Part shown: in pieces, positions 3 through 57,375 of the stretch | Layout: every line of letters starts with the position of its first letter | Numbering within the stretch: position 1 is the stretch's first letter | NCBI RefSeq assembly: GCF_036588685.1 | Contig: NC_086376.1 | Location: 83,369,630 to 83,433,629 of the forward strand | Origin: Mytilus trossulus | Taxonomy: Eukaryota | Direction: 5' to 3' | Length of the DNA stretch: 64,000 nucleotides | Translations under genes and position numbers: made by a program | The notes under the pieces: model-generated | Database searches by the model: none | What the model saw: only the letters and a program-made list of their open reading frames with translations | Told to the model about the DNA's origin: nothing

Positions 3-1864
3 TCTGACCATCGTATTCCGCTTAATTATCGAGGAATAAGCTTATTGTCCTGTATATCTAAGCTGTACAGTGCCTTCATAAATAACCGACTATCGACTTA
101 TCTAGACGAGAATGAGGTTCTTGCTGATGAGCAAAATGGATTCAGGAGACATCGTTCTTGTGAAGATCACGTCTTTTCTCTTAGTAGTGTGATTCAGAAC
201 AACGCTAATGTAATTGCAACATTTGTGGATCTAAAGAAAGCTTTTGACTTCGTGGACCGAGATATGTTACTTTATAAGCTTTTACTAAACAATATCGACG
301 GCAAAATGTACAAATCTATCAAAAACATTTATTCCTACACAACAGCTAGTATTCGTGTCAATCAGAAGATGTCGGATTGGTTTGTTTGAAACTCTGGTGT
401 GAAACAGGGAGACAATTGTTCGCCAACTTTGTTTTCTATATTTATTAATGACCTTGTTCAAGAAGTGAACAATTTGGATCTTGGTATAAATATCGAAGAC
501 ACCAAATTGTCTATGTTGTTGTACGCAGATGACATTGTACTACTAGCATACAACGAGACGGATATGCAAAAGATGTTGGATAAGCTACACGACTGGTGTA
601 AACGGTGGCGAGTTCTAATAAATACAGATAAATCCAAAGTAGTGCATTTCAGATCTGGCAGACGACAGCGTACATCTTTCCAATTCAAGATTGGAGACAA
701 TGAATTAGAAGTTACAAGTCAGTACAAATATTTGGGAGTAATATTTAACGAGAAAAAAGACTTTGCATCAAACGCAGAAAATCTAGCAAAAGGTGGTGGA
801 CGTGCTCTAGGAGCAATTATCTCAAAACTTCACAATCTGAAGGAATTTGGATTTAAGACATTTGAGAAGCTGTATAATTCTTGTGTGGTACCAGTATTAG
901 ACTACAACTCCTCAGTTTGGGGATACAAAAACTTCTCCGGAATCGATAATATACAAAACAAAGCAATTAGATATTTTCTTGGAGTACACAAATTTGCACC
1001 AAAACTAGCCATAGAGGGGGATATCGGATGGCTACCTTCTAAAGAACGACGATGGCTCAACATGATAAGTTACTGGAACAGACTGTTGTTAATGGATAAT
1101 TCAAGGATTTGCAAACGTATCTTTCAATGGGACTATAGCATATGCTCAAACAACTGGTCGGCAGAAATAAAAACTATAATGACAAACATTGGAGTTATGG
1201 AAACTTTTCACAATAGAAAGAGTTGTGATATAAATAATGCAAAATCAGCACTACTTGAACAGCATGGTCTTGATTGGTTAAAAAACTTAGATAGATATCC
1301 AAAACTGCGAACATTCAAAACTTTCAAAAATAATTTCTGTGCTGAATCATATGTGAACCTTAACCTACAACGCAACGAACGGTCGATGTTGGCTCAATTT
1401 AGATGCGGCATTCTACCTCTAAGAATTGAAACAGGACGGTTTAGTGGCGAACCTGAAGACAGCAGACTTTGTAAAATGTGTAGCAAAAATGAAATTGAAA
1501 GTGAAACTCATTTCCTTATTAACTGTGATTTTTATAATGAACTTCGAAATGAACTTTACTCAACCATACCAAGCAAAGAAACATTTTTATCACTGCCACA
1601 CTGTGAACAATTAATACAATTTTTAATTTATTTTCCAAGAAGAACAGCTAAATATATTTTACAAGCATTTACAAAACGCAGACAATTCATTTATGTAAAT
1701 AATTGAACTACATGACTCTACTATGAAATGATTTAAAGATTTATATTTTTTAAGTGACTTATAGGTCCAATGGGCCGGGTGTACAACTATTGTATTGACA
1801 AATATTATTATTATATTGTATATATACACAATGTCACTATAATAAACAAATTCGTATTCGTATT
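3..1864 (+). mobile_element. Non-LTR retrotransposon (LINE; RTE-X/CR1-like clade not resolved), 3' part, antisense in a TEP1 intron, with one in-frame stop
   Basis: One frame from 3 to 1706 reads NYRGISLL..EQNGFR..FVDLKKAFD..GVKQGD..SPTLF..YADD..YKYLG, then a C-terminal RLCKMC..ETHFLINC motif. ORFs 45-389 and 399-1706 are the same frame split by TGA at 387-389. AATAAA at 1841 is followed by a short (TTCGTA)n tail to about 1864. Confidence 0.92.
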
Positions 1865-2268: not shown

Positions 2269-5200
2269 CTCAGTATAGCGTCACTAAATCCTGTGATATA
2301 GATGTCATTATCGTTCTCTGGTTTGATACTCTCAGAAAATCTAAAAATATAACAAGATTACATTTTTAAAATATACACAACATTTTCTCTCATGAATGAA
2401 TTTTCTAAAAACAATTTTTTGTAAACACTTTGTTTTGGGCTGATTTTCATTAAATGTTTATAGTTGATACTTTCATTAAACTATTTAATTTACACAACAC
2501 ATCATGAACAGACCTTGTGTACAACAATTCTGTGATTCTATCTACTGTAAATTTAAAAGTTATTGCAATATTTTTATTATTGCGAAAAATTTGACAGGGT
2601 TGTAATCGCAATAATTTAAACTAGCATTTAATTTTTTTTTAAATGATTTAGCAGGATTTTCCTCAATGTCGCAAACATCAAAATTGCATTATAATCTAAA
2701 ATGACAATAACGCAATAATAAATGCATGCAATAATTTCTGAATTAACAGTATTTACAATATAAAGACCCTATCTTTGTTATTTTAAGACTTATTTTAGCT
2801 TAAATTACTATTATATACATACCCACAACCTTTTCCGCTGAATGAAATATTGGCATACAACAGATTAGGGTTTACTAGTTGTCTAAACTTCTTCAGGAAG
2901 AAGGAGACAAAGTCCTGCTGTACACTGTCAACTCCACCACTCAGTATTATCAAGTTATCAATCTGTAAACCAAAATTTTTTAACCAATCAAAGTCAGGTT
3001 TATTAAATATAATTCACAGTAAAACATTACAAATTATGTGTTTTAAAGGCAGTATATATTGAATGTCTTCAATTTTTAATGAATATTTCATGTAAATTAA
3101 CTAATTTAAATAATCTGATATTTAAAAAATAAATCCAGAAATACAATTTGTCAAAATTTTGTAAAATATGCATATACAGGTATATGTAAAAAATATAAAA
3201 AAATAATAATTTTATAGTGACTGAGTCAAGAAAATATTAAGAGTAACCTTTAATTATTGTAAAAGATATGCTACTGCTGTGAACATTTTAATTTTAATGT
3301 GACAGTCATGAAAATGTTAGGGATAACCTTGATTCTTATAAGTGATCATTGTAAGGAAGTTATCTCAAATGACAATTTATCCAATCTCTCTTATACTGCA
3401 CTCAATGTTAATTGATTTATTCAGAAGTTCATACCTGTTGTCTATCCACCAAAGCAGCATTTAATATACGATCTGGAATTTTATATTCAAAGTTCTTGCC
3501 AGTCTGCATTTGTTTATCCAACTGAAATAGTAATGTTTTCATAAAAAATATATTATGCACAAAAAGACTATTAGTCATCGTCAGCTGAAATTTGTAGCGG
3601 TTATCTGTAAAAATAATCTAAACTATCATTCGCTTTCACTCAAGATATAGTTTTTTCACATTCCATTCCTAAATCGTCAGAAGAAAAACCACTACTAACC
3701 TTCTTTTAAGTGATTGCACTGTAATTATCCTGACCTTAACATTCTCCAGAATATTTTCCATTGTAATTTCGCCATCTTCGTTTCTATGAAGATCCTTTGT
3801 TTACATATGACACACGTCACTTTCAGAGTTTACTGTAATGTTCTTTTCATTGATGTGATAAAGTTTTCTGCGTTTTATGCAAATTTTATGAAATTGAACT
3901 CCATGGAAACACTTCTGGTAAAAACAATGGTGGATTCCACCATTCAAAATCGTCTTGGTAAATGTGAAGGTCAGGATTATCACAGTGCAAGCACTTAAAG
4001 TAGGTCAGTTGTGGTTTTTTCTTTTGTCGATTTATGAATGGAATGTGGTTGATAGTTTAGATTATTTTTACCGATAACCGCTACAAATTTCAGCTGACAA
4101 CGAGAATACAACTAAACTCAAACAACTCTAGGTAAATTTGTTTCAAAATGACAAATTCAATTTTCAACTTTAAGTCAAAATATTTTTGTATACAGCCTAC
4201 AAATGCAAAAGGAAAAATAGCTTCAAATATAATGAGGATTGTCTACCCTAAATATATAAGAATAAATATAAATAAGCTGTATTTCACAAAAACTTTCAGT
4301 GATTTGTGTCCTTAATGCTTTTCAACTTTGTTACTGTACTTTATTTGGCTTTTTAACTTTTTTTATTCAAGCTTCAAATATGCATTGATGTGTCTTTTGT
4401 AGACGAGGTGCATGTACAAAATTTTGATACTGGTATCTTTGATGATTTTAATCCCAAAAAGAAGCAAAAAATGTATATTCAAACCAAAAACAGTTGTCCC
4501 TGTAACTATTTCCTTATATTGACTTTTCTATATTAAATAAACTAACATGACATGCATAAACTGGTTATGAAAATGGGATTGCTGCCCACAGCATCGTAAT
4601 GAGCATCCTTATATGCTTCTTTTTTATAATTAAGGGTATAGATAAGGGGTTTTCTTTCACAAAAAGGCCACTCATAAATAATATATTCTTAATCTTCAAT
4701 GTGGACCCATCAGACTTTAACTACTTACAACAGTAAGGGTATCTTCCATGTTATTCAGAATTGTTCCAGGTTTTGGTGTGATCAGGTCATAACGGGACTC
4801 ATCAAATACAACAAATTCACAATTCTCACACGAGTATTTACACATCAAACCCATCAATACAGCTACTTCCCTCATCTAAAATAAAAGAATTTTATTTTGA
4901 ACTGAAATACACAAAATTATAAAGTACATTTTTCCAATACATATTCAGACATGCAATGATTTATCATGATAAAATACAATTTTGAAAAGTTTAGGCATTT
5001 TATGATCTTTCATATGATTTCAGACTGGTAAACATGACAAACTTTTGGCATTAGAATAATTTATGTCATAAATCAATTGAGAAATATTTTCCATTGGTAG
5101 ATGATTGTTTTAACAAAAATTGATTTTCAACTTTGCTAGGCAAAGTTGAACCTATATAATTTTGTCCAATCTTTTTAAATCTGTATCTTTCCATTTATTC

Positions 5201-25700: not shown

Positions 25701-28700
25701 TAAAAAAAATATTAAATTATTTGTAGCACCATACAAATAGAAATAAAAGTCAAATTCAATTTAAAGCTTTCCACCTTATTATAATGGATTGATTACAATT
25801 TGTTTTAGACAATATACAGAAAAGAAGAACATTTTAAGGAGGGGATTATTTTCCTTATTTTTAAGATTGAAATAAAACTGTGATATTGAAATGCAGCAAA
25901 CATAAACCACTCTAAAATAAATAAATATAACTGTTTTACTCTGCAATTAAACATTATAAATGTTGGGATAATGCTCTCAGACAAACATCAAATTTAATTC
26001 CAAAATTAGAACAAGTTTCAAGGAGCATTCCAAACCATGGAAATCACTGAAAAACTTTCAATCATAAAAACTCATATCAGAGAGAGATAAAATTATTTGT
26101 AACCTTGATTGTAATTGAATTTTTGGACAGTAAATATTTTAAAAAATTGACCATAATAATTTTGGAATATTCCAGTCAACCTGAAGAATTTGGTGTAGAA
26201 GGATATCAGCCACCTGTAGAAGAGATCAATGCTCATGCCCCACCCCCTTCATTGGTACCAAGATTACATGCTGTTTTGTGTAACAAGCTGACACACAATA
26301 ACCCACTACTGCCACAGAAACCTGACTCAGATGAATATAAAACTAGTAAGTGGAGACTTGTGGATAGTAGTTCAAACCTAATAAAAGAAAGAAACATTCA
26401 TTGCAAAGAAAATAAAATCTTTCATGCAAATCTGTTGGTGTTGATCAAAGTATTAAAAGTCATAGAAGTTGAACTTACCCATCAATTTAACACTACAACG
26501 TATAGCTATATAATTATTGGAAAATCCTCTGGATTTCATTCTATTGGAAGTTTAAATTTCTCCTTGAAAAACACTTTAGGAATGACTGTATTTTTTCTGT
26601 CTATGAAGAAATAACATAAAAATGTGGTGCACACTGAATAACGTGTGTAGCAGGTTATTTAACAGTGTGCACCACATTTTTTATATTATTTCAAATAGAC
26701 AGAAAAAATATTACAGTCATTTCTTATAATTTAATTCTAAATTCCATTTTAAACCGTAGAAAACCATGAAAAAACGTTGATGACGTCATTGTTACATGAC
26801 TAAATTATGTCTATGGGCTGATAACAAAATAACGTCAGCCAATCAGAAGATGCGTTACATCCAAAATTAAATTGTATCTTAAGTGAAAACCTGTGAATTT
26901 TACTAAAGAAAACTGCATGTGTGAAGAAAACTGAAGACATTTGCTGAAATTATTATTTGTACTTTATACTATACTTTTCCAACATAAAAGTGAAAGTTCG
27001 TTGAAAGTTGTAACATTTCTTTCTAACCTATTTAAAGATTATATCATAAATCTCCACTTTGCTCTAATTTGATATATGCTAGTACTCTTTATGTCAGTGT
27101 ATGAACCAATGCATTATCTTTCAGAATTTCAGCAACTTGAACAAGAGATAGATACTTTAAGAGGGAGAATAATGGAGTTGTTAGAACATGCACTACTTGG
27201 AGACAGTTTAGCTGCAGAGTTCTTTCTATTGCATTTATTATCCTCTGTGTAAGTATTCTATTACTATAATAACATTATGTTTGGTAGCAGATTTCAGTTG
27301 GGATATCAATCATTAACAATAGCATACTGTCCATCTTGTAGCATTTGGATAATTGCTGAATAATTACCAAAATTTTGCCTTTTGGACATATGAGGCTAAA
27401 CTATAATTACTAACATTCACTTCATTTGAACTTTGGTGTATAGTTGCCTCATTGACATTCATACCACATCTCCTTATTTTGTATAGCATACATATATTTT
27501 GTACTCTTGAAAAACAAATATGTGTCAAACTGAACCAAAGCAATTGATTTTAAACTCAATAAAAAATATTTTTCAGGTATGGTAGAGCTGATGTGATGCC
27601 TCTAGGAAAGTTCAGTCTTAACCTAAGTCATTGCCCTGTAACACCTAAATATGGTCAGCTATTACAAGTGTTCATGGCAGGACTGCTTTCACAGGTATAT
27701 ATCAATAACATTATGAGAACTTTATTTCTTAGCTTTTATGCCCTACTTACAAAAGTACTGGACATACTGTTTCAAGTCTCGGCATCTGACTATCCATTAA
27801 TCCATATCAGGTTTAAGTTTTGGGTTAAGGTAGAAACCCATGATATTGTGTTCAATTTAACTTCAAACTAAAAAGACTTGTGTTTATTATTATGTTAACT
27901 TTTTAATATATGTCTAATCTAGGTTTTGACCAATACTTTGTGGAAAATAACAAAGGAATTGTTACAAATTTGGAGTGCATACTTATAACAAGAAAGTTTT
28001 ATTTTCAGTCACATTTACTCCCCTTGTCGATAGAAAACATGAATACTTTACGATTATGTCCAGAAAAAGACTACACAGCAAACCGTTTAAAATCTGGAGT
28101 ATTGCAACTACCTGAGAGAACATCATTAGTCATAGATGAAACAGTACTACAACCTGGTCAACTGGAAGCTGGGGGTATGTTGGGTTGAACATTTATCTCA
28201 TCAAGGTCTGCTCATATATATTTTACTAATTCTTGCCTTTGAGAGAGATCAGTATCTATAGATTGTTATATGGCGCCAATCATTGAGTAAGAAAAATAGA
28301 AGGTTTACATGTGTAACACACAAAAACAACCATGCAACAATGTCAATTTCAGCATGTTCAGTGAATGTTTTTGAAGCACTTTTGTTTTAAATCTGGCAAT
28401 ACTTTATTATTTATATTTACTGTTGAAATTAGTTGCTATGCCATAATCAATAATTATTCACTTTGAGTGATTTATATTATTGTTGTCCTTTGAAGTATCA
28501 GCTCGAAACAGGTGTTATAGCTCACATTACATTTCTCAGCCTGATACAAATCATCTAATATTTAAAGACGCTATGCAGTTATTGTCTATGTAACTTTTAT
28601 GATATTTTTGTCTTTCAAGGTGTCAAGAACATGACAGCATTAGGAAACCTGATCAGTTGGCAGAAAGTGGAGTATGATTTCAGTTACCACAGACAAGATT

Positions 28701-48327: not shown

Positions 48328-50894
48328 AGAGCACGAAGGACGAAACATTCCGAAAGTAACTCAGTGGCCGACTAATACTGACTGAATAAGTTCGTCATTT
48401 ACCCATTACATTAACTGTTTAAAAAATAGTTCACTACAGAAGTAGTGGAGCAGGATCAGACTTGACATACTGATTGGTTTTGAGAAGGTTTTGTTCGAAG
48501 TGAGGCAACACCGATCACTTGCTGTTTTCTCGACAAACAAAATGTCCCTGGTAATAATGAGTGATTAAAAAGATTTAAACTAAAAACAACGCAATAAAAC
48601 TTCTCCAGAAGAATTCTTCCTTTCAAAACTTCGATAAAAGTAAGACCTCATCTTACCGAACAAGAAGCAGTAGGTAAACATCCTTTCCAAACCCATACTG
48701 AAATACTTCTATGAACTTATTTTCTGGATTTTACCCAACTGTTAGTACTAGGAATACTCCTTTCCTTTTTTAAACTATTTTACATCAGAACTACATCGTC
48801 ATCAAAATTGTGAAGTAAAAAGGCATATTTTCCCAAAGCTGTTAAAGACAAGTAAAAATCCCTTACAAATTGTTGCAAGGATATGAAAGGATTCATTCTT
48901 ATCTTTTATTGAAGATGACTCTTACTTGTGCTTACCTTTCCTGAGTACATACCATACCCTAGTTCTTGGTGGGGTTTGTGTTGCTCGGTCTTATGTTTTC
49001 TATGTTGTGTTTTGTGCACTGTTGTTTGTCTGTTTTTGGATTTTATATTTAGCCGTGGCGTTGTCAGTTTATTTTCTACTTTTTGAGTCTTTTTTTAAGG
49101 TATATATCACATCTTCTTCAATTACTAGAGATATGACAAAAGCTTTATTTAACTGTTTTTTGTGATACAGTGTATGAAACATATACAACCAGAAATAATG
49201 AGGACTGTAAACAATGAAGCAAATATCAACATTACAATCAAGGAGGATAATGCAAGTACAATGTATATGCAAAAGAAGAAGAAATGTACATCATATGGTT
49301 TCAGAACAATTTGTCGCATACCGATCAGCTTTATTTATGCAAATAGACATACAAGCGAGAACACTAACACTTGTCTATTTGAGAGAGTGAAAGGATGTGT
49401 TTGTGTTTTGTACAATGTTTTCTTTATATTATTATGTAGTAAGTGGATCCATTTAAGAGATCTCTACTGGACTATTTTTCGAGAGTGTTTGAGTTGAGTT
49501 ACGTCTGACGACATTTTTTTTGGACGAATTGTTCCAGTCAGCGATTGGATGAGGGATTTTATACTCTCAAAAAAGATAACCAATTTGGTATATAACTATT
49601 TATGTTTGGGTTTTAATTGTCAAGTTTAAGCTCTTTTAAATTTTGTTGGAAAAGCTTTTCTGGATTAATCTTCAGCATGAAGAAACAGACAAAGCTAATT
49701 GTAGGGTATAGATATAGAAAACGTTAAGGGCTATATGACCAAAAGAAAAGCAATATTCATTGCAGGTCAACTTTGCCTGAGGAAGTTGAAATCTTAGTTT
49801 ATAATTTTGTTTTTCTTCATTTATAATCGGGTACACAGTATGATTAAAGTCATAACTGTAACAAAGCACGGACTTCTGAGCTAAAGAAAGTCTCTGGGAA
49901 TCTCAGCAGTGATATCTACGCAGTGAAAGGAAATGATTAAAAACAGCTTTAAATTTTTTTCCTGCGTTCGAAGCTGGGACAACCTTCACAAAGAACGTTA
50001 AAATGTAATGTATACTATTGTTTCAGAAAAGGGAGAATATTTGGTACAATTAAAACGTTTAATCCCACTTCAATTGTTTGCACCTGTCTCAAGTCAGGAA
50101 TCTGATGTTCAGTGGTTGTAGATTAGACTTGTTTTTCCCGTTTGAATGATTTTACACTAGTCATTTTGGGGCCCTTTATAGCTTACTGTTTGGTGCTAGC
50201 CTAGTCTCTGTGTTGAAGACCGTACCTTGAACTATAATTAATGGTTTACCACATATTCCTATATAGATATAGGAAGATGTGGTGTGAGTGCCAATGAGAC
50301 AACTCTCCATCCAAACAACAATTCAAAAATTAAACCATTAAAGGTTAAAGTACGGCCTTCAACACGGAGCCTTGGCTCACACCGAACAACAAGCTATAAA
50401 GGGCCCCAAAATTACTATATATCTATTTGATTGCTAGGGTGCAGAACATCACAGAAAAGGTATAAGCTATATAACTTAAAGTTTCCTAAAATGAATAAAC
50501 AAGTTCAGTTTTACTGATTGAGTTATAATATTAAGTTTCTTGGTATTTGTTTATGTCGATCAACGAGTTATTTGAGGAAATATGTTTAAAAGCATGCCAG
50601 TAACGAAGAATGTTAGGAACTATTAGACCAAAGCAATACAAAAAGAATCGCCACATTCATCGAAAGCCAACTTTTCCTGAGGGAGTTGCATCGTCGCTAG
50701 CCAAGGTTTACGAGAGGAGGGAAGTGGATATGTGGCCTTATTTTCTAAGGTTATCAACGAGGCATTTGAGTAAATATGAATCTTTATAATTCATTTGATT
50801 GATTATTTACAAATTTTTAATTTATCTATATAACATTGTATAAGAAACAAATAAACAGTTCAAACATATTAAAAATGAGTTTTAGATTTTGTCT

Positions 50895-51996
50895 TCAATA
50901 GCGATATCTTCTTCCACCACGCCTAGAACAAGGGAAGACACATTTTTCTAGTGATAGTTGACATTTTTTCCCTGACTGACACCTTCCACATAATTCTGAC
51001 AGGTGCGGCTTTTTCGGTTCAGAATTGTCCTCTTCACACTCGCAATTCACCATTCCGCAACCGGAACAAATAAGAGGTGTTGTTCTGTATGGCCCCATAA
51101 ATTCATCACACTCCATGCACTGTTGTTTATATAGGACCTTGAAGAAAATGTACCATATATATATGTATATATATAACATAGTCATCGGTCGTTTTAGTCT
51201 CTTTCACTCTATCGTATCTTTTTGAAAATATTACAATATATTTTTCGCGCTTAAAGAAAACCCCGTCAATGTTTAAAGTAAAAGAGTTTAAGTCATGCGT
51301 TTCATAACTTGATGCTTTTCTATGTCATAATATTGCAATGTCTGCAATGTACTAGGCTTCGCGATTTTTCAGTAAACGTTAACTTGGAACTGGATCAAAT
51401 AACACTTATTAAGTGTCATTTGATTCAGTTCCAATACACATACTAAGGCAAAGGAAACCCATTGCCATTTCGCCCTACAAAAACAGTTAGTTTTCTGAAA
51501 AACATTGCACTCATCTGTGCTGACAATGTATTACATCCAATAGTAAAATCCGTAATAAGTTTGACTGTGTGTTTTGTACCAATACATGTAAACTCGCCAA
51601 ATCGGGAATACAACGGTTTTATCGAATGTCTCGTGAGAGGAAACTATCTTCGTGTACCAATTGGCAAAACCTGACTTTTGTGATACTTTCAATTTCCTGA
51701 ATATGCATGATATTTTGTCACTGGACGTGATTATGATAAAGCAAACTCAATCACTAAATTATAATCTGTTTAGTAAAAAAAATAAAAAAAATAAGAATGA
51801 TATCCATCTCGGTCAGTTTGCAAACAATCAGTATTTACAACTTTTAGAAATTGAAAGTTATCAATACCTTTAGCGTTCCAGACATTTTCCAGACATATGA
51901 ACTTGTCCACTCATGATCACAACTTCTGCAACAAAAATATCCAAAGCATCTCACTTCTCTTTGTAAACCCTCTCTACGATTATTGCGTCTTCCCAT
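50895..51996 (-). CDS. Stand-alone ZAR1-like (zf-3CxxC) zinc-finger protein, 2 exons, 123 aa
   Basis: Exon 1 (51996-51868) MGRRNNRREGLQREVRCFGYFCCRSCDHEWTSSYVWKMSGTLK, phase-0 GT-AG intron, exon 2 (51137-50895) VLYKQQCMECDEFMGPYRTTPLICSGCGMVNCECEEDNSEPKKPHLSELCGRCQSGKKCQLSLEKCVFPCSRRGGRRYRY*. It aligns motif by motif with the vertebrate ZAR1 C-terminal domain as I recall it (YGYYHCKDCNIRWESAYVW..GTNKVYFKQFCRTC..PYR..CQSC..CSC..PKRPHRQDLCGRC). Confidence 0.85.
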
Positions 51997-52781
51997 CGTA
52001 TTTTGTATTGTTATTTCCAACTTATTTGTATCATTACATCATATATAGAAATGTAAATCTTTATTTAGAACTCTGTCATTGACACGACTTAGTTGGGGAA
52101 AAGAAAGTCCCAGTGTAAATGTATTCTAATCTATTTTTACATTCATCTATTGAATTCTAGTTTCGGTTTTACTATCTAATCAGTATCAAACATATAACTG
52201 GAGAAAACCAATTTTATAATGATATTTCAAACCGATATTTTTACAGATTCGGTTAAATCTGCAAATAACTTACAACTTCTGTGGACCATACTATATATAA
52301 CTTTCTGCGATTATTTTTAACTTCAATCCAATAAAATCCATTTATAACTCGAGGTCGATAACACAGCTAGTGAACGTTTTGTCTGCTCTGAAAGGGTATT
52401 AAGGGCATAACGGCCACCTCCAAATGGTGGCATTACGTCATTCTCTGAAGATTTAATACTAGTATTCGTAAAGTATTAAAATAATTCGAAACTAAAAAAG
52501 AAGATGTGGTATGATTGCGAATAAGACAACTCCCCACAAGAGACAATGACACAGAAATTAACAACTATAGGTCACCGTAAGGCCTTCAACAATGAGCAAA
52601 GCCCCTACCACATAGTTAGCTATAAAAGGCCCCGAAATAACAAATGTAAAACAATTCAGACTGTGCGAGCGGATACCAACCCTTCCCTAATCTGGGACAG
52701 TGGTGTAACAGACTAGTTACAGAACTAAAAAGAAATGCATAAAGTCGATAGAAAGTTTCTGAGAAAAAGCTCTTTTGTTCA

Positions 52782-53416
52782 CTACTTTACTTTATTATTT
52801 TCTATTTCGCTCCTTGTGTTCAGTTAAAGCGGACTTTACTTTATTATTTTCTATTTCGCTTAAAGCGGACTTTACTTTATTATTTTCTATTTCGCTCCAA
52901 GTGTATTCAATTAAAGCGTACTTTACTTAATCATTTTCTATTTCGCTCCTTGTGTTCAGTTAAAGCGTACTTTACTTTTAAATTATTATTTTCTATTTCG
53001 CTCCTTGTGTTCAGTTAAAGCGTACTTTACTTTATTATTTTCTATTTCGCTCCTTGTGTTCAGATAAAGCGTACTTTACTTTATTGTTTTCTATTTCGCT
53101 CCTTGTGTTCAGATAAAGCGTACTTTACTTTATTATTTTCTATTTCGCTCCTTGTGTTCAGTTAAAGTGGACTTGACATTATTATTTTCGTTTTCGCTCC
53201 TTGTGTTCAGTTAAAGCGTACTTTACTTTATAATTTTCTATTTCGCTCCTTGTGTTCAGTTAAAGCGTACTTTACTTTATTATTTTCTATTTCGCTCCTT
53301 GTGTTCAGTTAAAGCGTACTTTACTTTATTATTTTCTATTTCGCTCCTTGTGTTCAGTTAAAGCGTACTTTACTACATTTTTTTCTATTTCGCTCCTTGT
53401 CTTCAGTTAAACCGTA
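52782..53416. repeat. About 49-bp minisatellite, about 13 copies
   Basis: Unit ctttactttattattttctatttcgctccttgtgttcagttaaagcgta. Confidence 0.95.
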
Positions 53417-55387
53417 TTGCACTCAATCCGGAATATTATTTGGCCTACGCATACGCTCTTTCCAACTAATTTATCTATTGACATCACATATCTTGCTATA
53501 TCTGCTAGCTATGCCCGTACTCGTCTTAATATTTATATAGTCTTTATGTATTTTTAAATGAGATTGTAGAGCAAAATGTTTCAACCTTCTTTGTTCGTAT
53601 TCATATGTAATTTGTCGATTTAACCGAGCATCTGTTGCCCTCAAGGAGTAAATGTAATGTTTCGGCATCAGTCGGGAGGATCTAGAAATTTTCCGTCCGC
53701 TGTTGGTGAACGAATCAACGGAGTGTTTTTTTTCAAATTGAAAAGAAAATTGAGACATGAAAAAGCGTTGAAAATTTTACATAATCACAGTCATGAATCA
53801 ACATTTTTTTTTTAACGTTTGAACTTTTTTGAAAAAAATATGAATCCTTATGATGACTATAACGCTAATTCATTGAACTATGGAACCTCCTGTTTAAGTG
53901 TTTGCCCAAAGTTGTAGAATAGAACGGACGAGTTTATTTGTTCAAAAATCCAGGAACCAAGAAAAAGAAGAATAAGAGGATACCGTACATCGCATGTAAA
54001 ATGGGAACAACCCCATAAAAAAGCCGGAGTCGAGCAAATCATGTTATAAGCCACGTGGCCCGATAAACAGGTTTTAAGTTTATCAAAATTACAACTGAAC
54101 TAACGATGTCAATGTACGGTTTAGAAAAGAGGTGGAAGATCAAAAGGAGGGTCCAAAACTGTTTGTTACTTAGAACCGTCAAAATAGTTTTAAAATAATG
54201 ATAATCGACAACAACAAAAATCAAAATGTACAAATCACAATATAATTACTACTCAACTACACAAACCTCATCAAAAACCGAGGGTGATTTGAGATTCTCT
54301 GAAAGGGTAGCAATGAGATTGAGCTCAAAAAGTAACACGGCTATGTACGGTAAATATGCATGTAAGCTTTTTAAGTCAATTATAAATAACGTATTCCGAA
54401 ATAGGTAGAAAGCTAGCTAACCAAAGCGGTTGCATTTACCTAAACACTCAAGGCAAGCAGCTGTAACACGGTTATGTAGGGTAAAATATATGTCGATAAA
54501 CAACGTACACGAAAAACATCTCTAGTGCTCAGAAAGGTTTATCAACAATGTATCTCACAATTGTAAAAGAGTCTTTAGAAATTGTAATAAAAGATTATAT
54601 TCTTAAAATTACCTCAATTCAAAATCATTTCAATGAAAGATGATTGTTAAAAAAAATTGTTTTTGAATGGGTCCATCGCGTGTAATACGTTAATAAGATT
54701 AGTATTTAAGGAAAAGAAAGAAAAAAATGTCTTTATTAGGCTACATTATATACTGCATTATAAATGAAAAGTAGAGTTACCTTTATTTAAAATCCGGTTC
54801 AGTTTGATTTTAAAAATCAACATTAGCTCTGAGGAATTGTATATTTTTAGATTTCTTGCAACCTATCAAAATTTAAAGCTTTTTTAAGAGTGTCACCTTT
54901 TTAGAAATGGTCGATTCGTACATGGCAAAACTGAGAAGTTCATAAAAAGAAACAAAAGGTATGTTGAAAGATAAGTTTATATTACGAACGTGTTAGTTAA
55001 GTTTGAATAGCTGTTTTGTTTTGTTTAAACTATCAGATTGCAAGTTAAATACAAATAGATAATTCAAATCTATTTAAAGTTAAACTTGTTATGGCGACAG
55101 GATACACTTTAAATTCTATATTCAAAATATAATATTCTTATTAAAGGATTGATAGATTTTTTGTTTAGTTTTCATTTAATTTCGTGTTATTGTCTGAATG
55201 TAATAAATGAATAAGAAGCAATTTCATAGTAATTCATTACTGTCTCTTACTTTTGAAATACGAGATATAATTAATCTGGTATTGTTTTAAAATAATCACC
55301 TTTAGAAGGAAAGCCGAATTAGATTTCTTTCGTACGACACGCTTCGAGTTATATATAACTGTTTTTTTCTTCTTACAAGATTAAAAA

Positions 55388-56533
55388 ATGTCGAAGGCTA
55401 AAGTTTTCGTTGATGGAAAAATAGCTGGGAAGAAGGTAGTTGTCTTTTCAAAATCCTACTGTCCTTACTGTAAAAAGGCAAAAGCTACGTTGAAGAAATA
55501 TATTGGTGAGGATGAAAAAGACATCATTGAAATCGACAACGATCCTGACTGTGACGCAATCCAACAGTATCTTGGAAAGTTAACAGGAGCAAAATCGGTC
55601 AGTTAATATTTAAAATGTAAACTAGTTCATGCATGTAGTTGTTATTTTCTATCTTTTAATATGTAAAAAAAAAAGAAATATTTCTTAATTCGGATGTGAA
55701 AAAAACATAGTTATAAACGAAATGCCATATTCAAATTTCAGCAAAGACATTCAAAACTTATCCTTTTTTAAGATTGCAAATTTCATACTGACATCTACCA
55801 GTACAACAAAAATAATGTGTTTGGGTTGTTCAGTCTAACATACAAAAAAATACATTCTTATAAAAATAAGAGGTTGTGGTATGATTGCCAATGAGACAAC
55901 TCTCAACAAGAAACCAAATGACACAAAATTTTCAACACAGTACAGCCTTCAATAATGAACAAAGCCCATATCGCATAGGCAGCTATAAAAGGCCCAAAAT
56001 GCTGTTCCTGCTTTATTGATGACAACTGACAACTTAAAAAAAATAATAGAACGCTGTCCCTTTCTTTGTCATCTAAGTTACAAACTATCGGTGTCATAAT
56101 AGTCCCAAAATCTTCCGATCTTCAAATCTATTATTAAAAACCCAACACACCCATTTATCAGGAGATCATGATCGGAAATGAAAAATCTGATAGTATTAGT
56201 ATCAACTAATATTTGTTTAGAAGTCGCAAATTTTCACTGAATTTCTTGCATATAAATTTCAAAATTTCTGTTATGCCATTATGCGTATTAACAGAATACC
56301 TAAACATATTTTATGGATTTAAGCGTTCGAGATGCAGGTAACAGCTTGGACAAACCAAGGTTAATAAAGTGTTATTTTTGTACGCCATTTTCATTTTTTA
56401 TAGAAATATAATAATTGTGCTGATTATGCTATTTTAGGTTCCCAGAATATTTGTCAATGGTAAAAGCATTGGTGGCAATGATCAACTTGAAGAGTTGGAA
56501 CGGAAAAAGGAGCTGGCAGTGATGCTTAAATGA
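55388..56533 (+). CDS. GLRX: Dithiol glutaredoxin (CPYC), copy 1, 2 exons, 101 aa
   Basis: Exon 1 55388-55597 (VVVFSKSYCPYCKKAK..LTGAKS) and exon 2 56438-56533 (VPRIFVNGKSIGGNDQL..MLK*), phase-0 GT-AG intron. Confidence 0.93.
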
Positions 56534-56773: not shown

Positions 56774-57240
56774 TTACAATATAATATAGATCGACAAACT
56801 ACCGGTGACTAAACTGTATCTAGAATTAATTTTCTCTCTTTGAATAAAGTACACAATAATAAACTTACTTTTTTAATTATAACATTATCCTCAGATGACA
56901 TTAACCATATTAATTTTGATTTATTTGGGAGGCTTTTAAAGTTTTTGTTAACCTTATTTAAGTAATCTATATATTCAGATCTTTTATTTTCTAAAACAGG
57001 ACACTGAAGAAGAAAATGAATTTCATCTTCAACTTCAGTGTTACATAATTTACATATTCTATCCTCCACTCGAAGCCCCACATATCTGCCTCTTTCAATT
57101 TCTAATTTATGTGCACTGACTCTAAACTTAGTGAGCAGTCGCCTTTCATCCTCATTTAAAATTAATAAGTATTTTTCCATATAAATATTTTCTTTAAATA
57201 ATCTGTAAGTTCTTAGTTTATTTCCATGCTGTTTATTTTT
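56565..57240 (-). mobile_element. 5'-truncated LINE (C-terminal zinc-knuckle end, 3' UTR, (TTTGTA)n tail) just downstream of the glutaredoxin-1 stop
   Basis: NKLRTY..FRVSAHKLEIERGRY..RICKLC..EDEIHFLLQC is homologous to the C-terminus of the LINE at 399-1706. Minus-strand AATAAA is followed by (TTTGTA)4 at about 56565-56600. Confidence 0.85.
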
Positions 57241-57375
57241 TTGCAACAGAGACGTAAATGGCACGTTGACAAAGACGATATCAAAGTTGGTGATGTAATT
57301 CTTATGAGAGACAAATCTATTTACCGAGGAGAGTGGCCACTAGGCATTGTGGAGGAAGTTCCGGATCTGATGATA
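57241..57375 (+). mobile_element. BEL/Pao LTR-retrotransposon fragment (DUF5641-like C-terminal domain)
   Basis: The + frame from 57241 reads LQQRRKWHVDKDDIKVGDVILMRDKSIYRGEWPLGIVEEV, then a frameshifted (P)GSD. This matches the LQxRxKW..VGDxVL..WPLGxVxEVxPGxDG pattern that follows BEL/Pao integrases. Confidence 0.75.

Follow-up and report, generated by a model that had tools for sequence, protein, structure and literature searches.

A domain-only ZAR1-type zinc-finger gene in the mussel Mytilus trossulus, with a candidate IRF element upstream

Introduction

ZAR1 has been described in vertebrates, where the cited reports call its molecular function unclear (PMC6868374, PMC12799850). As far as the cited passages go, the ZAR1 domain is required for mRNA binding (PMC6868374, PMC12799850), and MARDO assembly in vertebrates is driven by the N-terminal disordered region (PMC12799850). 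It is also reported that changing human ZAR1 R397 to Q weakens binding and that deletion of the domain leads to loss of most ribosome and mRNP partners. A 3CXXC domain is likewise the active part of RTP4, an interferon-inducible antiviral protein, in the portion of the report cited here (PMC12431671).

Invertebrate proteins annotated as "ZAR1-like," including the Mytilus records XP_063435012.1 and VDI63381.1, bear automatic names and share a domain-only build of 94-137 aa; the mussel copy is divergent, with 40-51% identity to the others compared. In the literature searched, outside which most subscription journals lie, there was no study of invertebrate ZAR1-like genes, of their evolution, or of the human ZAR1 structure 9JKO. 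The protein encoded at the locus described here belongs, as a domain-only form, to a known domain family, and the family appears to be unstudied.

Results

The gene lies on the reverse strand of a 64,000-nt stretch of the M. trossulus genome, hereafter the window, and its features are collected in Table 1. A first-pass annotation of the window had joined a 43-codon exon in frame to a Cys-rich open reading frame, giving a 123-aa protein with an in-frame stop 15 codons before the ATG. This model proved exact, with motifs as described and a TGA at 52041-52039 as the 15th codon upstream of the ATG. The product contains 15 Cys and 2 His, and the candidate ligand motifs are C23/C26, C50/C53, C67/C70/C75/C77, and H88/C93/C96/C102; from their spacing, we infer that these 12 residues would hold three zinc ions. 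The three upstream ATG frames in the 5' untranslated region are 1, 2, and 7 codons long, and the 3' untranslated region carries one CPE-like and one Pumilio-like word, both A+T-rich. One run had a 6-nt insertion at 52033, in the 5' untranslated region.

Table 1. Positions of the gene and of nearby sequence elements within the window
Feature	Position	Strand	Description
Coding exon 1	51868..51996	-	129 nt = 43 codons; Arg-rich N-terminal tail, first CxxC, W-x-S-x-Y-V-W hairpin
Intron	51138..51867	-	730 nt, GT-AG, phase 0, between K43 and V44
Coding exon 2	50895..51137	-	243 nt with stop = 80 codons + stop; second CxxC, CxxCx4CxC, PHx4CxxC..C, C-terminal tail with two extra Cys and Arg/Gly-rich end
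5' UTR, to furthest contig reach	51997..52072	-	In-frame TGA and three short upstream ATG frames
3' UTR, to furthest contig reach	50805..50894	-	ATTAAA at 50821-50816
IRF/ISRE-like element AAAACCGAAACTAGA	52156..52170	-	Candidate site, 84 nt upstream of furthest contig 5' end
Second candidate site, GAAA-N-GAAAG (+) overlapping kappaB-like word (-)	52096..52111	.	Pattern picked after seeing the sequence
Minisatellite, 49 bp x 13	52783..53416	.	0.8-1.4 kb upstream of ATG; 13 GAAANNGAAA matches

Transcript data confirmed that this ZAR1-like locus is a real, spliced two-exon gene. Eight of 24 listed public runs were examined; their RNA status was a program's guess, and they carried no tissue or condition labels. 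A 730-nt skip with GT..AG ends, corresponding to the proposed 51868/51137 junction, was present in seven of the eight runs (7 studies; 4/4 and 3/4 in two batches), and the eighth contained an intron contig alone. In runs X10, X12, and X13, single contigs extend from 52057-52072 through the joint to 50805-50814. Since these three contigs begin 5' of the in-frame stop, the assembled transcripts encode the short protein only, and the long upstream coding exon that would have spoken against the model is absent from them. No loose 5' end was seen among the contigs listed, and a long N-terminal coding exon was therefore rejected; the contigs reveal neither the true transcript start nor the tissue, and a rarer, longer isoform is possible. 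A retrocopy as the origin of the joined contigs was also rejected, given one exact genomic locus per exon (searches that return lower bounds).

The gene is not hidden, as had been claimed, because the spliced protein is letter for letter the RefSeq entry XP_063435012.1 ("zygote arrest protein 1-like," Mytilus trossulus). That entry may derive from the same genome, and it thus adds no separate support for production of the protein. A cluster look-up also retrieved two 123-aa proteins from M. galloprovincialis, one of them named "zygote arrest protein 1." Separately, the Logan proteins P0006 and P0008 represent a variant of approximately 90% identity, one form of which has a 59-aa C-terminal extension unlike the 3' untranslated region of the window, and one contig from run X7 (record 24) departs from the window sequence at 50871. 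The variant and the contig suggest that other mussels have divergent alleles or an additional copy. Gene presence/absence variation is a feature of Mytilus genomes.

The case for kinship with the ZAR1 domain is strong. With the orthologue P0003 (94% identical to the query) as probe, the profile PF13695 (Zn_ribbon_3CxxC) scored 36.1 bits against a cut-off of 23, with exon 1 alone and exon 2 alone each under the cut-off, and PF17180 (ZCCHC24) reached 15.1 bits against a cut-off of 27. The sole PDB sequence match of P0003 was the human ZAR1 RNA-binding domain, 9JKO (E 5.3e-19). An AlphaFold2 model (pLDDT 70.9, built on a 31-row alignment that included three vertebrate ZAR-type rows) likewise matched only 9JKO at E<=0.001 in Foldseek (E 1.3e-8), and in a comparison with 48,161 chains only 9JKO reached Z>=5 (Z 12.5, rmsd 3.0, 94 aligned). 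The second-ranked fold match was Shiftless (SHFL, 9KBO; Z 4.1, rmsd 4.5, 74 aligned, Foldseek E 0.17), with an ESM Atlas feature match of 0.82; these scores lie below the bars for a relationship and make Shiftless no more than a lead. Shiftless is an antiviral protein and is named as such in its Atlas cluster. A viral origin was rejected, as no BFVD match was obtained at E<=0.001.

Across the 87-aa core, identity to both ZAR1 and ZAR1L was 41%. Alignment scores of 203-234 were obtained with ZAR1 (211), ZAR1L (203), and most mollusc ZAR1-like domains, and 168 with amphioxus, versus 97 with the ZCCHC24 of the same genome and 57-63 with RTP-like domains. Of 11 invariant alignment positions, eight are Cys or His; the aromatic hairpin W30/S32/Y34/W36, P59-Y60, and K86 are all kept. 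In the alignment, K86 occupies the position of human R397 and L89 that of human R400. The mussel core is neutral (11 K+R, 11 D+E; pI 6.8), whereas the paralogues and vertebrate ZAR1 are basic (pI 8.7-9.6); the whole protein has a pI of 8.8, with the basic charge carried by the Arg-rich tails. Four of nine coding variants in the examined runs alter a residue.

Like vertebrate ZAR1/ZAR1L (ZAR2) and 9JKO, the mussel protein has all 12 candidate zinc ligands, the predicted fold, and the phase-0 intron. Its intron occupies the position of mammalian ZAR1 intron 2, at the exon 2/3 boundary (K352|V353), and the vertebrate gene models P0115, P0120, and P0131 are split at the matching place. In Table 3 of PMC1435755, the boundary is given as nt 1057/1058 in human and 945/946 in pig. 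We computed human K352|V353 at nt 1056/1057 (primate ZAR1 C-terminus numbered to 424 aa); the lengths in that table are off by one, and the pig value fits exactly by hand count. The exon-boundary match with vertebrate ZAR1 proposed in the first-pass annotation thus holds against this table. In contrast to vertebrate ZAR1, the mussel protein is without a long disordered N-terminus, as judged by the in-frame stop inside three contigs, and the gene lacks both the SFKYII-type C-terminus and the exon 3/4 intron. It further differs from ZAR1 in its neutral core and in belonging to a set of four fast-diverging paralogues. The label "ZAR1-type" is accordingly meant to rest on domain and intron, and we would not file the gene as a ZAR1 orthologue because the long disordered N-terminus was tested for and is absent.

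The choice of a ZAR1-type domain over RTP or ZCCHC24 was borne out by sequence, fold, and architecture. ZCCHC24 and the mussel protein have in common the first two CxxC pairs and the final H-x4-CxxC..C site, but ZCCHC24 has neither the hairpin extension nor the CxxCx4CxC site, carries its intron elsewhere, and is encoded by its own gene in this genome (C7). RTP4 and invertebrate RTP-like proteins belong to the same Pfam family as the mussel protein (PF13695), but their domains differ in the middle segment, are much more distant, and also have their own gene here (C12); in the domain cuts, the mussel protein has the CxxCx4CxC site in place of the RTP-type segment. The RTP-like 3CxxC gene (L013:1363-1692 and 2305-2502; C12:14.956 Mb) has relatives in molluscs, arthropods, echinoderms, and chordates and is far more conserved than the ZAR1-like genes: invertebrate RTP-like sequences are 61-95% identical over one exon, versus 40-51% between mollusc ZAR1-like proteins and the query.

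The gene is not a lone oddity: the genome holds three further short genes encoding 98-100 aa, of which two form a tandem pair on C1 and the third lies on C3, for a copy number of at least four (counts are lower bounds). All four have the phase-0 intron. A search of 1.84 billion representative proteins returned 136 matches, a few of which were Cys-rich noise. Besides P0003, 59 of the 135 matches were complete and Met-started, although many are gene predictions and some perhaps truncated; in this set, 30 or fewer residues preceded the domain in 23/37 non-vertebrate-like versus 1/22 vertebrate-like proteins. Among 20 matches that were looked up, eight were short forms (Lamellibrachia, Solemya, Patella, Haliotis, Gigantopelta, Mizuhopecten, Littorina, and Amphiura) and two were long forms (Branchiostoma, 384 aa; Plakobranchus, 319 aa), the rest being a three-domain MMETSP protein, one fish fragment, and eight without a name. 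Annotated domain-only forms thus extend to other molluscs, one annelid, and one brittle star. This wide occurrence outside chordates fits the old minimal module that had been proposed at first reading. Four MMETSP or unnamed metagenome records (P0010, P0033, P0056, and P0057) each contain two or three ZAR1-type stretches, which suggests that the domain occurs outside animals.

Phylogenetic placement was attempted with a quick tree of 58 rows (two truncated RTP rows dropped) and a careful tree of 22 rows; signal was thin over 92 columns, and the RTP-like rows did not include vertebrate RTP1-4. In the 22-row tree, the amphioxus long form and vertebrate ZAR1/ZAR1L formed a group at 95/91 with the query outside, and the query and other invertebrate short forms fell in an open polytomy. 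The RTP-like rows, at the end of a very long branch, grouped together at 100/100 and excluded the query, and the ZCCHC24 rows formed another 100/100 group. The query had a terminal branch length of 1.08, and the best maximum-likelihood tree set it beside ZCCHC24 at 65/0. Approximately unbiased tests rejected none of its placements with the chordate group (p 0.38), as sister to RTP (p 0.47), or with its own paralogues (p 0.13). The trees therefore neither confirmed nor refuted a position with ZAR1.

Because an immune role had been suggested at first reading, the upstream regions were scanned for IRF and kappaB words. In the cited passages, IRFs recognize AANNGAAA (PMC7819612), GAAANNGAAACT is an ISGF3-type site (PMC6954429), and the ISRE is bound by scallop and oyster IRFs (PMC13524488). 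The three paralogues are preceded, at a distance of 131-357 nt, by canonical GAAANNGAAA elements; the corresponding element here, at 52170-52156, has one mismatch. All four are on the sense strand, about 130-360 nt before the ATG, and are followed by (G/C)TAGA; the element of the query gene lacks the first G of the canonical ISRE. The upstream regions of the three paralogues are 74-77% identical and homologous, so their elements count as one event, and the query upstream region is otherwise not alignable to them. A motif derived from the three other paralogues alone had a 2-mismatch match 174 nt upstream of the query ATG; such a match occurred at 1 in 262,340 background positions and in 25/5000 simulations (chance about 0.001-0.005). 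The best reading of the element is that it is old and has been kept, and that an IRF would bind it is a good guess.

The motif is not a genome-wide marker of immune genes. Its 14-base form common to the query gene and one paralogue has 81 copies in 1.3 Gb, and the motif exceeded its reversed control (1176 versus 448; 81 versus 43) at least partly because of repeats: by our own count, 32/67 of the exact sites examined fall in repeat groups. Of 77 motif loci taken, 60 (top 1-8 frames per locus) were compared by Pfam scan with 37 control loci, and immune-type domains were not enriched in this weak test (2/60, TRIM and HEPN, versus 2/37, fibrinogen C and DUF4559). The long frame adjoining one motif site is a retrotransposon gag, and the homology of the three paralogue upstream regions to a retroelement-flanking site is limited to 26-30 nt, so that the element may or may not stem from a transposon. 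The second candidate site in Table 1 has a pattern present in 0.8% of random 250-nt windows. Each minisatellite unit carries a GAAANNGAAA word, which could be an IRF-site array or chance. Upstream of paralogue C1a, a tandem duplication (L008:345-745) shows 67% identity over approximately 186 columns, and of its element copies the proximal is degenerate and the distal intact. A 300-bp repeat family present in several contigs (L031, L032, L082, L091, L100, L106, L107, L115, and L121, at about 2850-3170) sets this IRF-like motif beside a second GAAA word and could spread IRF sites.

Discussion

We propose, with a probability of about 0.45, that the gene encodes a small RNA-binding regulator, likely under IRF control in somatic or immune cells. 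The ZAR1-type 3CxxC domain and the short Arg-rich tails would bind mRNA or viral RNA on their own, IRF-type transcription factors would turn the gene on in somatic or immune cells, and the protein would regulate translation or counter viruses as a small diffusible factor, much as the 3CxxC domain of RTP4 does. Lacking the disordered N-terminal region of ZAR1, it would not assemble storage condensates in oocytes; the family is probably older than the chordate long form, to which the N-terminus would have been added. The argument draws on the 9JKO matches, the mRNA binding of the vertebrate domain, and the R397/K86 correspondence. It draws also on the intron shared by the four paralogues, the 23/37 versus 1/22 distribution of short forms, and the 95/91 chordate long-form group. 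Also in favor are the shared motif, the published IRF sites, fast divergence, and challenged clam haemocytes, in which a probe named "zygote arrest protein 1" was up 5.62-fold 24 h after Vibrio exposure (PMC4234419, Table 2, which leaves the paralogue unspecified). Against this reading stand the neutral core, the R400-to-L89 change, the missing first G, the repeat sites, the failure of the motif to mark immune genes, and the occupancy of less than 1% of canonical ISRE words in mouse cells (PMC6954429, cited passage), together with the ovary bias of a snail "zar1."

The main rival, which we consider possible but unlikely, is a maternal-mRNA regulator like vertebrate ZAR1, made in the oocyte and binding 3' untranslated regions, with partners supplying repression or condensates. 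Domain and intron are as in ZAR1, the snail "zar1" is ovary-biased at a log2 ratio of -2.19 in the cited data (PMC13023353), and the 3' untranslated region has the CPE-like and Pumilio-like words; however, those words are A+T-rich and may be chance matches, the long-form clade is chordate, the N-terminus tied to MARDO assembly (PMC12799850) is absent, and a homologue is expressed in clam haemocytes. The cited part of PMC13524488 reports high oyster IRF1 mRNA in cleavage embryos, so an IRF site is also compatible with a maternal role. Published expression hints are mixed and not tied to the query paralogue, and it is the shared upstream motif that tilts the question toward immune control. Less probable is a drift away from RNA binding toward a stress-controlled module that binds zinc or protein. 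The neutral core, the terminal branch of 1.08, the 15 Cys with two extra at the C-terminus, the residue-changing variants (4/9), and a surfclam homologue lowered by heat stress in the data cited (PMC10869415) would all agree with such drift, but the retention of W30/S32/Y34/W36, P59-Y60, and K86 and the Arg-rich tails (whole-protein pI 8.8) argue against it. Least probable of all is a place with ZCCHC24 (or RTP) among the 3CxxC proteins, with the ZAR1 likeness a retained ancestral state. The 65/0 placement beside ZCCHC24, the AU p of 0.47 with RTP, and the top ESM Atlas feature matches, which are ZCCHC24-like (0.89 and 0.88, under the 0.9 bar), lean that way; alignment scores of 203-234 on the ZAR1 side versus 97 and 57-63, the PF17180 score below cut-off, the missing CxxCx4CxC site and different intron of ZCCHC24, and the separate ZCCHC24 and RTP-like genes lean the other.

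Should the upstream element prove to be a functional IRF site, these genes of 100-120 aa become candidate antiviral effectors in bivalves, and a maternal-effect gene would be linked to innate immunity. A natural domain-only version with the ZAR1 intron indicates that the domain predates the oocyte-condensate protein. On a bolder and rather doubtful extension, the ZAR1 domain would first have served on its own as an RNA-binding immune effector inducible by IRFs, and molluscs and other invertebrates would still carry it in small multi-copy genes; chordates would have fused a disordered N-terminus to it and co-opted it for oocyte mRNA storage, with ZAR1, RTP4, and perhaps Shiftless as branches of one old antiviral zinc-finger clan. 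The domain-only mussel protein offers a ready test of what the ZAR1 domain does alone. In addition, "ZAR1" in mollusc transcriptome papers, taken as a reproduction marker in the passages cited, may be no such marker.

Other features of the window

The first coding exon of a glutaredoxin gene lies at 55385-55606 (+) (PF00462, E 3.6e-11), divergent from the ZAR1-like gene and 3.4 kb from its ATG. The intervals 390-1706 (+), 56809-57339 (-), and 26051-26614 (+) hold two fragments of LINE-type reverse transcriptase and one exon of MCMBP. A dispersed repeat at 52493-52700 is represented by hundreds of contigs per run, with related pieces both around 50270-50410 and in the region upstream of paralogue C1b.
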